Program-made: the position numbers and the translations under genes | IMG/VR virus record: IMGVR_UViG_3300033145_001546 | Span: 13,256-77,255 of that record | Direction: 5' to 3' (one strand) | DNA length: 64,000 nt | From: a virus | In this document: in pieces, positions 9,114 through 11,196 of the stretch | How the letters are laid out: each line of letters begins with the position of its first letter | Position numbering within the stretch: position 1 is the stretch's first letter | The notes under the pieces: generated by a model | Seen by the model: only the letters and a program-made list of their open reading frames with translations | The model's database searches: none | What the model was told of the DNA's origin: nothing

Positions 9114-9377
9114 ATGAAAACGAAAACGAAAATCGAAAACTATTTAGACGCTCTAAATTCTCTCGGTTTCGGAACGCCGTCTTCCGACGACGATTCCGGG
9201 ACGATAATATTAGACTCCGGCGATATTATCGAATTATCGAAATTCGAGCGGGGCGGGAAGGTTTCGACCGAAGACCGAAAAGTCTCTTTTTATTTTTCCG
9301 GCGTCTCGGATCTTATCGAAATTCTCTCCGGCGGAAAAGTCGTATATACGACCGCCGGAGAGACCGACGAGTTTTAA
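9114..9377 (+). CDS. Early cassette protein 1 (acidic; no C/W/H/Q or internal M)
   Basis: Strong GAAAGGGAAAGA RBS; TAA followed by hairpin. Confidence 0.8.
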   Translation: MKTKTKIENYLDALNSLGFGTPSSDDDSGTIILDSGDIIELSKFERGGKVSTEDRKVSFYFSGVSDLIEILSGGKVVYTTAGETDEF

Positions 9378-9429
9378 GAGTCTATAAAATACGGTCCGAG
9401 AGAATCCGGACCGGTTTTTATACGCTTTT
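9376..9429 (+). repeat. Intergenic hairpin, variant copy
   Basis: AAGAGTCTATAAAATACGGTCCG-loop-CGGACCGGTTTTTATACGCTTTT. Confidence 0.8.
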
Positions 9430-9471
9430 AAGAAAATCGAAAACTTTACTTTAAGCGAAAGGGAAAGAAAA

Positions 9472-9708
9472 ATGAAAACCGAAAAAACGGAAAAACGAGT
9501 AGAGTCGATTCTCGGAAAGGAAGCTTCGATTCTTTTCGATTCGGAATTCGAGAGGATGGGGATTTTCCAGGTAGAGAATTCCGATTCGGAAAACGAAAAG
9601 TTACTTTCGGAATTTCTCTCGGCGGTCGGAAAAACGGTTTCGGAAATCGACCGGGAAATTCTAAAAGGAATTATAAAAGAAGAATTAACCTATATAAACT
9701 CCTTCTAA
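9472..9708 (+). CDS. Early cassette protein 2 (acidic)
   Basis: Same RBS block as cassette 1. Confidence 0.8.
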   Translation: MKTEKTEKRVESILGKEASILFDSEFERMGIFQVENSDSENEKLLSEFLSAVGKTVSEIDREILKGIIKEELTYINSF

Positions 9709-9724
9709 TTCTCCTTTTCGAGTA

Positions 9725-10016
9725 AAAAGCCTATAGACTACCGGACCCGAAAAGGGTCCGGGTCTCTATACGCTTTTAGAGTAACTCTATACGCTTTTCG
9801 AGTAACTCTATACGCTTTTCGAGTAACTCTATACGCTTTTCGAGTAAAAAGACGAATCGATTAAAGACGAATCGATTAAAGACGAATCGATTAAAGACGA
9901 ATCGATTAAAGACGAATCGATTAAAGACGAATCGATTAAAGACGAATCGATTAAAGACGAAAGACGAATCGATTAAAGACGAATCGATTAAAGACGAATC
10001 GATTAAAGACGAATCG
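9725..10016 (+). repeat. Hairpin + 4x 21-bp repeat + about 11x 15-bp repeat
   Basis: Hairpin 9725-9777; CTCTATACGCTTTTCGAGTAA x4 (9764-9847); AAAGACGAATCGATT x10 plus 2 partial (9848-10016). Confidence 0.95.
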
Positions 10017-10038
10017 TATATTTTAGAAAGGGAAAGAA

Positions 10039-10287
10039 ATGAGTAAAAGAAAAAGCGTAGACGAGAAAATCGGGAATTTACTTCTTTCGGAAATATCGAA
10101 AGTCGATTTACTTTTTTCGATGTATACCGAATATTCCGAAAAACCGGAGATGGAAAAGCGAATAATCGAAGCGATAGTAATATATAATTCGCTTCGGGAA
10201 AGAAATCTTATCCCGGAAAATTCGGACGTAGAAGACTATAAATCGGCTTTCCCGAATATAAAAATGATTCCCCTAATGGAGGTATAA
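10039..10287 (+). CDS. Early cassette protein 3
   Basis: GAAAGGGAAAGA RBS; no C/W/H/Q. Confidence 0.8.
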   Translation: MSKRKSVDEKIGNLLLSEISKVDLLFSMYTEYSEKPEMEKRIIEAIVIYNSLRERNLIPENSDVEDYKSAFPNIKMIPLMEV

Positions 10288-10406
10288 AAAGCCTATAGAC
10301 TACCGGACCTTCTCCGGGTCCGGGTCTCTATACGCTTTTAAGACGAACCGAATTAAAGACGAACCGATTAAAGAATAATTGAAACTATTTTAGAAAGGGA
10401 AAGAAG
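10287..10406 (+). repeat. Hairpin + 2x 15-mer + RBS block (type B spacer)
   Basis: Near-identical to 11200-11318. Confidence 0.9.
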
Positions 10407-10607
10407 ATGGAAAACGAAAAAGCGAAAAAATTTGGAGTAAAATGCTATCGACATGCTTCCTCAATTTTCGGAGAGGCGACCCGCTGGGCGAAAAAAGCCG
10501 ATGGAAACCGTATCGAATTCGATACGGTAGAAGAAGCGGAAAGATACGCCGAAAAAAGAAATAACAAAGGAATCTTAAATTGCGAGTATTTCTTTAGCCG
10601 AATCTAA
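10407..10607 (+). CDS. Early cassette protein 4
   Basis: Conserved RBS; FDTVEEAERYA motif typical of small phage proteins. Confidence 0.75.
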   Translation: MENEKAKKFGVKCYRHASSIFGEATRWAKKADGNRIEFDTVEEAERYAEKRNNKGILNCEYFFSRI

Positions 10608-10621
10608 GCCACCGAAGTATA

Positions 10622-10852
10622 AAAAGCCTATAGACTACCGGACCTTCTCCGGGTCCGGGTCTCTATACGCTTTTCGAGTAACTCTATACGCTTTTCGAGT
10701 AACTCTATACGCTTTTCGAGTAACTCTATACGCTTTTCGAGTAACTCTATACGCTTTTCGAGTAAGAAGACGAACCGATTAAAGACGAACCGATTAAAGA
10801 CGAACCGATTAAAGACGAACCGATTAAAGACGAACCGATTAAAGACGAACCG
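10622..10852 (+). repeat. Hairpin + 5x 21-bp repeat + 5.8x 15-bp repeat
   Basis: Hairpin 10622-10674; 21-mer 10661-10765; AAAGACGAACCGATT 10766-10852. Confidence 0.95.
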
Positions 10853-10875
10853 TATATTTTAGAAAGGGAAAGAAG

Positions 10876-11196
10876 ATGAAAACGAAAGAGTTTATGAAAT
10901 TAGTCGAAAAGGCGATGAAGAAAATCGAATCGGAAAACGTCGAAGAACTAATCGAAAAAGCCGAAGATTATTGGGAATCCGGTATAGCTATTCGATTTTC
11001 GCCGATGGATGAAGAAAATGAGACGGAAATCGACGGAGTATATTCCGAAGAGAAAATTGAATTCGAGCGGCTCCGATGGTTGGCTGCTGCTTGGGCTTCC
11101 GTACTTAAAACCCGAAAACTCTTAGAAGGTCATCCATCGGCGAAATTAGACGAAATCGAAAACGACTTAAAAGGAGACTTAATAGACGTTCTTTAG
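10876..11196 (+). CDS. Early cassette protein 5 (acidic, possible DNA mimic)
   Basis: Conserved RBS; about a quarter of residues are D/E. Confidence 0.75.
   Translation: MKTKEFMKLVEKAMKKIESENVEELIEKAEDYWESGIAIRFSPMDEENETEIDGVYSEEKIEFERLRWLAAAWASVLKTRKLLEGHPSAKLDEIENDLKGDLIDVL

Follow-up and report, generated by a model that had tools for sequence, protein, structure and literature searches.

A phage gene block nearly free of CA and TG and the reduced amino-acid alphabet of its predicted early proteins

An early gene block depleted of CA and TG

The virus record IMGVR_UViG_3300033145_001546, a single contig of 77,255 bp, contains a block of five small open reading frames (ORFs), predicted to be early phage genes, in DNA from which the dinucleotides CA and TG have been almost entirely removed. 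Our analyses concern a window of 64,000 nucleotides from this record (record positions 13256-77255), and all coordinates are window positions unless they are marked as record positions. Left of position 7822, structural and terminase genes are encoded on the minus strand, and a long block of early and replication genes runs rightward on the plus strand. The contig has no terminal repeat, and both of its ends lie inside the structural module. The five ORFs, which are named here by their first positions and numbered in order as cassettes 1 to 5, are listed in Table 1 with the other features of the region.

The depletion is most severe in the strict zone (8356-10038, 1683 bp), where CA and TG together occur six times compared with approximately 200 occurrences expected. 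Of these six exceptions, two are start codons and two are a methionine and a glutamine codon; the others are a CA in the leader and a TG within a promoter-like site. Counted over 8350-10000, three CA and four TG remain (odds ratios of 0.03 and 0.04, respectively), and windows of 300 bp taken from 7900 to approximately 11318 hold between zero and three such steps each, where about 36 are expected. A 757-bp leader that contains no ORF retains one CA and no TG (about 93 expected), and the spacers between cassettes carry neither. The strict zone contains ATG only at 9114, 9472 and 9556, with no GTG, TTG or CTG. Other common sites are plentiful, including TCGA (61), CCGG (37) and GAATTC (8), and CpG over 8350-10000 is raised to 2.4 times expectation. 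This last excess is explained by the ban itself, because among NCN codons NCG alone is safe whatever its neighbours, and because a pyrimidine preceding G must be C. The purged zone is the only such stretch in the 77,255-bp genome, and nowhere else comes near it; the stretch 8356-11318 thus lacks a target that the remaining genome carries.

Every codon for cysteine, tryptophan, histidine, glutamine and methionine contains TG or CA. In ORFs 9114, 9472 and 10039 taken together, only one of 244 residues is Cys, Trp, His or Gln, compared with 21 expected (P = 4e-9) from a reference set of 78 genes of the same phage, in which these four amino acids make up 8.8% of residues. The individual residue counts and the TAA stop codons that the original prediction had given for these three ORFs were all recovered on recounting. 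No other ORF of the phage reaches zero for the four residues, the minimum among 106 being 1.7%. The early proteins are written with approximately 15 amino acids, and the missing share is taken up by Ser and Glu, which are doubled, and by Ile, which rises 1.5-fold; Arg is not enriched (0.67 times the reference).

The choice among synonymous codons is restricted just as tightly. In the same three ORFs, codons of the form NCA or NTG for Leu, Val, Ser, Pro, Thr and Ala were found in none of 89 cases, compared with 30.7% in the reference genes (P = 7e-15), and the junctions between codons contain no CA or TG in any of the ORFs, where synonymous resampling yields 11-18 and none of 2000 resamples reaches zero. 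Codons that end in a pyrimidine end in C in all 40 cases before G and in T in all 12 cases before A, a rule that the reference genes do not follow. The avoidance of these codons and junctions had been claimed from the letters alone, together with the proposal that a constraint on the DNA is strong enough to reshape protein sequence, and these claims withstand the comparison with null expectations. Because non-coding DNA (the leader and spacers), synonymous third positions and codon junctions are purged to an equal degree, the constraint is seen to act on nucleic acid, and protein composition follows. We are highly confident that a ban at the level of nucleic acid shapes these proteins. In our main reading, selection on DNA has removed the TG/CA step from some 3 kb (8356-11318) holding the five early ORFs.

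The original prediction also described a gradient along which later cassettes readmit the missing residues. Readmission does occur, although in two steps rather than as a smooth slope. Cassettes 1 and 2 carry one Met, Trp or Cys (10 expected) and one His or Gln (8.6 expected). In cassettes 3 to 5, Met, Trp and Cys are back to normal (13 versus 15.3 expected), whereas His and Gln stay nearly absent (2 versus 13.3; P = 1e-4) until ORF 11319, from which cassettes 6 to 8 are normal in both respects (14 versus 13.1 and 10 versus 11.3). The sense strand of 10039-11318 likewise contains six CA and 27 TG (P = 4e-4). Since a CA in the sense strand is a TG in the template strand, the greater rarity of CA suggests that TG in the template strand is the costlier of the two. 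This strand asymmetry is weak at avoidable sites alone, where CA (3 of 21.5 expected) and TG (9 of 41) are both down to 14-22% of expectation, and it becomes significant only when residues are counted.

Table 1. Features of the purged region and of other parts of the window, with window positions.
Feature	Position	Strand	Remarks
Divergent control region, partly purged	7900-8355	.	Between a small-terminase-like gene (7067-7822, minus) and the early genes; 18 CA/TG, odds ratio ~0.4
Promoter-like site, extended -10 element	8335-8363	+	Consensus match only; holds the last TG before the strict zone
Strict CA/TG-free zone	8356-10038	.	ORF-free leader, cassettes 1-2 and tandem repeat arrays; six CA/TG versus about 200 expected
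Second promoter-like site, TTTACT-16-TATAAT	8581-8608	+	Consensus match only; without TG or CA
Early ORF 1, 87 amino acids (aa), acidic	9114-9377	+	No Cys, Trp, His or Gln and no internal Met; TAA stop; homologue P0002
Early ORF 2, 78 aa, predicted four-helix protein	9472-9708	+	One Gln, one internal Met, no Cys, Trp or His; TAA stop; homologue P0004
Tandem arrays in spacer	9764-10016	+	21-bp unit x4, then 15-bp unit x11.8; both CA/TG-free
Early ORF 3, 82 aa	10039-10287	+	No Cys, Trp, His or Gln, four internal Met; TG only in ATG codons; TAA stop
Early ORF 4, 66 aa, transitional	10407-10607	+	Two Cys, one Trp, one His; avoidable CA 2 versus 6.8 expected, TG 3 versus 8.7
Second copy of tandem arrays	10661-10852	+	21-bp unit x5, 15-bp unit x5.7
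Early ORF 5, 106 aa, transitional	10876-11196	+	Three Trp, one His, three Met; TAG stop; avoidable CA 1 versus 7.4 expected, TG 6 versus 20.1
Last CA/TG-poor spacer	11197-11318	+	One TG; beyond it, the following ORF is abruptly free of the constraint
First unconstrained cassette ORF, 74 aa (boundary)	11319-11543	+	28 CA/TG; four Cys, one Trp, two His
Sigma-70-family factor, phage-encoded	16096-16629	+	Pfam Sigma70_r2, E = 1.2e-6
Radical S-adenosylmethionine (radical-SAM) protein, spore-photoproduct-lyase-like PA0069/Rv2578c group	23487-24251	+	Candidate DNA-modifying enzyme; no intein
Pyridoxal-phosphate (PLP)-dependent enzyme	24248-25111	+	Phage M6 gp52 homologue, 33% identical across 290 aa, E from 2e-46 to 2e-49
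Second radical-SAM paralogue	25333-27586	+	Split by an intein that carries Hint and DUF559 (homing-endonuclease) domains
Phosphoadenosine-phosphosulfate (PAPS)-reductase-like (PP-loop) protein	29736-30614	+	-

The early ORFs as genes and their relatives

Open frames alone are little proof of genes in this region because TGA cannot occur in the zone, and stop-free runs of 100-155 codons are present in five of the six frames of its strict part. Two of the three strict-zone ATGs sit behind a purine-rich motif that is found ahead of every cassette. Over 10021-13128, this motif reads TTTTAGAAAGGGAAAGAA within the purged zone (four copies) and TTTTTGAAAGGGAAAGAA outside it, at 12179 and 13111. The same ribosome-binding signal thus appears to be rewritten in the zone with TA replacing TG; an exact search for the motif in IMG/VR gave no matches. 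For ORF 9472, four helices were obtained in all five AlphaFold-type models, with predicted local distance difference test (pLDDT) scores of 72-77, and for ORF 9114 a pLDDT of 73 was reached in one model of five. None of the five early proteins received a function from Pfam, PHROGs, ESM Atlas, or Foldseek comparison with PDB or BFVD. Because a fixed ribosome-binding motif precedes the ATGs, homologues are conserved and ORF 9472 yields a helical model, we take ORFs 9114, 9472 and 10039 (with 10407 and 10876 in part) to be genuine small early phage genes.

Homologues were found for two of these proteins in independent datasets. P0002 (ENA, contig of 1235 bp) is 68% identical to ORF 9114 and P0004 (Logan, contig of 1090 bp) is 72% identical to ORF 9472, both with long conserved blocks and both likewise without banned residues. 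None of the 49 substitutions that separate the two homologues from the phage ORFs leads to Cys, Trp, His, Gln or Met, compared with 6.3 expected from BLOSUM62 (P = 0.001), and the sole Met and sole Gln of ORF 9472 are retained in P0004 within an invariant block of 21 residues. These two observations argue that the ban is old and shared among relatives, and that it gives way only where the protein cannot. The original prediction had pointed to homologues in unconstrained genomic contexts as the informative comparison; P0002 and P0004 are instead close relatives written in the same restricted alphabet.

Searches for the DNA encoding homologues of ORFs 9114 and 9472 returned nothing from IMG/VR, JGI metagenomes or GTDB genomes. 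ORF 10039 has no homologue among 1.8 billion representatives, a match to a protein of 3556 aa (P0006) having been dismissed as a repeat artefact, and the homologue search with ORF 10876 was empty. A DNA similarity search with the purged zone against 50,697 phage records gave zero matches, and five loci linked to this phage through the small-terminase-like protein (36-43% identity) contain no zone purged of any dinucleotide. A weaker example is present in Escherichia phage ECML-117 (Wifcevirus), a cultured coliphage, in which CA and TG fall to about a quarter of normal over approximately 1.7 kb (record positions 6750-8350); the residues Cys, Trp, His, Gln and Met number just two and one, respectively, in its two small ORFs (100 and 96 aa). 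This island differs in its weaker purge, its unrelated proteins and its host.

Several further features surround the early ORFs. The divergent control region (7900-8355) is pyrimidine-rich, and the CA and TG left in 7843-8356 occur almost only in palindromes of the TGCA or CATG type (ATGCAT, CATGCATG and CCATGG), which could be elements of an operator, a promoter or a packaging site. Paired arrays of 21-bp and 15-bp repeats lie upstream of cassettes 3 and 5, two-copy remnants are found upstream of cassettes 4 and 6, and the 15-bp unit, which contains ATCGAT in the first array, has ACCGAT in those that follow. The sigma-70-family factor encoded by the phage suggests a switch from host to phage promoters after the early phase. 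Elsewhere in the window, a family-A DNA polymerase is split into a part with a uracil-DNA-glycosylase-like domain and a 3'-5' exonuclease (33059-34258) and a part with the polymerase domain (34788-36170), with an ORF of 177 aa between them. No tRNA genes were found in the phage genome.

Restriction palindromes and candidate modification genes

A second signature, which involves the same dinucleotide, extends over the entire genome. Outside the purged zone, CTAG occurs zero times where 143 occurrences are expected, GATC and CGCG are reduced to 0.28 and 0.24 of expectation, and CTAG, TTTAAA, ATTAAT, TTCGAA, CCCGGG, AACGTT, TACGTA, GAGCTC, CTCGAG and GTCGAC are absent from the whole 77 kb. TTCGAA is missing inside the zone as well, despite the 61 copies of TCGA there. 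When the testable hexamer palindromes outside the zone were divided by their content, 20 of the 41 without CA or TG fell below 0.25 of expectation, compared with none of the 16 that contain CA or TG (Fisher P = 3.8e-4); sites that contain TC or GA are not spared.

The avoided sites that survive are informative in the same respect. Among surviving avoided hexamers of the form G...C, 38 of 41 are flanked by a 5' T or a 3' A, compared with 51% expected (P = 1e-8), and with such a flank the outermost base pair of the site becomes part of a TG step. The same flanks accompany 31 of 33 surviving GCGC sites and 57 of 80 surviving GATC sites, compared with 42-52% of sites for the unavoided controls GGCC, GTAC and GAATTC. 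These counts form a genome-wide statistical signature of restriction sites being shielded by TG/CA steps. Of the T residues of the phage, 23% precede G.

A comparable chemistry has been described in other phages. In Pbunavirus F8 and 14-1, approximately a quarter of T, in the motif TG, is replaced by a hypermodified base, and TG sites are protected whereas the TG-less sites recognised by EcoRI, HindIII, XbaI, DraI and BsaI stay cleavable (Yee et al. 2025 preprint, PMC12191111). The present phage resembles these examples in that a single dinucleotide, TG, is at issue, that it involves roughly a quarter of T and that the sites left unprotected there for lack of TG correspond to the palindromes purged here. 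It differs in that the mark is predicted from sequence and no biosynthetic gene in common was found. No CA/TG-free zone occurs in F8 itself, where CA/TG falls no lower than about 0.5 of expectation; 11 of its 12 strongly avoided hexamer palindromes lack CA and TG, which is the same direction as in the present phage and is not significant (P = 0.14).

The DNA of phages M6, ViI and phiW-14 resists enzymes with TG or TC in their sites, and a flanking T (tGCCGGC, and ApaI sites) also blocks cleavage (Flodman et al., PMC6449724). Just as a flanking tG blocks NaeI and ApaI there, all surviving GCCGGC and GGGCCC sites here are so flanked. The protected context in those phages is TG or TC, whereas TC-containing sites are strongly avoided here and so would be unprotected. 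M6 has no purged zone, and its kinase, transferase and hydroxymethylase were not found in the present phage.

Some candidate modification genes were nevertheless found (Table 1). M6 gp52, to which the PLP-dependent enzyme is homologous, is the decarboxylase of a thymidine hypermodification pathway that yields 5-(2-aminoethyl)-2'-deoxyuridine (5-NedU) (PMC8989533). The PLP gene is flanked on both sides by the two spore-photoproduct-lyase-like radical-SAM genes, an arrangement that recalls the adjacency of gp52 and gp53 in M6, and the second radical-SAM paralogue weakly matches M6 gp53 (E = 0.013), the radical-SAM isomerase of that pathway, which has a spore-photoproduct-lyase fold. The unassigned neighbours of this cluster have no Pfam or NCBIfam match. 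As judged from its gene content, the M6-type pathway appears incomplete here, and if thymine is modified, the chemistry would differ from that of M6. Phosphorothioation at the TG linkage was considered and rejected as it fails to explain the rescue of sites that are cut away from the flank (GATATC, GGATCC), and 7-deazaguanine modification was rejected as no TGT/DpdA, QueC, QueD or FolE was found among the phage genes.

A predicted mark at TG and its alternatives

A single account covers both the palindrome signature and the purged zone if TG steps carry a protective mark and the early zone is unmarkable. TG steps of the virion DNA would be marked by the phage, the likely mark being a hypermodified thymine such as those of Pbunavirus F8/14-1 and M6, and the early zone would be written so that the mark cannot be placed, which creates an unmodifiable early leader. 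We infer the TG-linked mark, which probably exists, as well as its chemistry and the reason for its exclusion from the leader. For the whole chain, in which TG is marked, the early genes are kept unmarked and the proteins are reshaped in consequence, we lean modestly towards acceptance.

Two candidate reasons for an unmarked leader may be offered. First, unmarked DNA could be transcribed without hindrance by the unmodified RNA polymerase of the host; bulky groups in the major groove stop bacterial RNA polymerase in vitro, and the block is probably one of initiation (PMC4838386). Second, an unmarked leader could be spared by modification-dependent nucleases during the time before early inhibitors appear, which needs stepwise entry of the DNA. 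END nucleases attack hypermodified genomes at an early stage of infection and are inhibited by a small phage protein (Yee et al., PMC12191111). The first reason is favoured because TG is more strictly banned from the template strand, and it is argued also from the sigma factor of the phage and from the TG/CA-free predicted promoter at 8581-8608.

The four alternatives that were weighed each explain less of the evidence than a mark at TG. The first of these is plain avoidance of a target on the DNA that enters first, where a host nuclease or other defence reads a very short determinant containing CA or TG and the phage makes no modification. The leading 3 kb would then be kept purged for as long as early proteins have yet to neutralise the defence, just as the first-step-transfer DNA of T5 is free of EcoRI sites. 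The zone adjoins the terminase genes, where cos or pac sites often sit, its purge is strictest at the start and relaxes downstream, and the phage avoids sites heavily elsewhere in its genome. We know of no defence that reads a bare dinucleotide, and the zone itself is rich in other common restriction sites, as counted above. In addition, palindromes that contain CA or TG are unavoided in the other 74 kb and a flanking T or A rescues avoided sites, which points to protection at TG/CA rather than danger. Although an early-injected region is reported to decide Type I sensitivity in the Autographiviridae (PMC12455610), we regard this first alternative as unlikely.

Very unlikely, in our view, is a cause at the level of RNA, in which early transcripts would be kept free of CA and UG so that an endoribonuclease specific for dinucleotides (for example a HEPN-type RNase or a toxin) spares them, or so that their decay is tuned. 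The strict zone starts exactly at the predicted extended -10 promoter and so could match one transcript, and CA in the sense strand stays banned further downstream than TG. However, this explanation needs two unrelated harmful RNA dinucleotides where one DNA rule (TG on either strand) covers both, the DNA upstream of the predicted start (7900-8355) is depleted too, and the genome-wide restriction-site signature concerns DNA.

A local mutational bias that converts T to C at TG and A to G at CA, for example through a deaminase, with purifying selection saving the indispensable codons, would account for the rise in CpG and the dominance of NCG codons in the NCN families. The CpG excess already follows from the ban, however, and the codons for His, Gln, Cys and Trp would mutate to Arg, which shows no enrichment. 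Furthermore, the ribosome-binding motif shows TG replaced by TA and not by CG, and the purged state has been kept between homologues that differ by about 30%; a bias of this kind is accordingly given little credence. Finally, it is scarcely credible that small acidic early proteins simply lack these residues, with the DNA pattern as a by-product, or that the ORFs are chance frames without TGA, for although Cys and Trp are often scarce in small acidic proteins of phages and stop-free runs abound in the zone, the leader, spacers, synonymous sites and junctions are purged alike, no other phage ORF lacks the four residues entirely, conserved ribosome-binding sites precede the ATGs and two of the ORFs have conserved homologues.

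Several points nevertheless weigh against a mark at TG as the cause of the purged zone. The modified base is predicted from sequence, and the restriction-site signature is statistical and in silico only; within it, the GCGC flank result alone could be explained by joint avoidance of RGCGCY and CGCG, which does not hold for the hexamer result. No BLAST match was obtained to M6 gp51, gp54, thymidylate-synthase-like ORFs or any F8 ORF. A 5-hydroxymethyl-2'-deoxyuridine (5-hmdU) kinase, an amino-acid:DNA transferase (aGPT-Pplase) and a deoxyuridine monophosphate (dUMP) hydroxymethylase were not found, some small minus-strand ORFs being unscanned. F8 (TG) and M6 (TG/TC) modify their DNA and have no CA/TG-free zone, and therefore a mark at TG alone does not demand one. 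Moreover, the sigma factor and later genes lie in normal DNA and need the core polymerase of the host, so that a block to transcription would not be absolute.

The pre-early DNA of T5, which is transferred in the first step, and the T7 leader with gene 0.3 are early blocks that lack a target present elsewhere in the genome. To our knowledge, motif avoidance by phages is known for sites of 4-8 bp and comes without cost to proteins. The purged DNA resembles those blocks, and the early-injected region of the Autographiviridae (PMC12455610), in being a short and possibly leading group of small early genes without the target that the remaining genome carries. It differs in that sites of 4-8 bp are avoided in the known examples and their proteins are unaffected, whereas the present ban is on a dinucleotide and costs five amino acids. 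Our literature search found no publication on such CA/TG-free zones or on their effect on proteins.

Two signals, namely the purged palindromes with their rescuing flanks and the word missing from the early genes, name the same dinucleotide, and they offer a computational route to predicting that a phage modifies its DNA and the sequence context of the mark. Tentatively, phages that hypermodify thymine at TG may keep an unmodifiable, TG-free leader and use the mark as a temporal switch, in which the host polymerase reads the naked early genes. Unmodified host RNA polymerase could neither start on nor read a marked template strand, and marked middle and late genes would be read once the sigma factor of the phage and its early proteins are in control. 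If this speculative arrangement is true, its by-product would be natural, conserved and folded proteins of approximately 15 amino acids, and the zone provides natural examples for the study of reduced alphabets. The findings also raise the question of what a hypermodified base costs the phage itself in the first minutes of infection. A ban on two letters has stripped five amino acids from conserved and apparently folded proteins, and selection on DNA can thus override protein composition.

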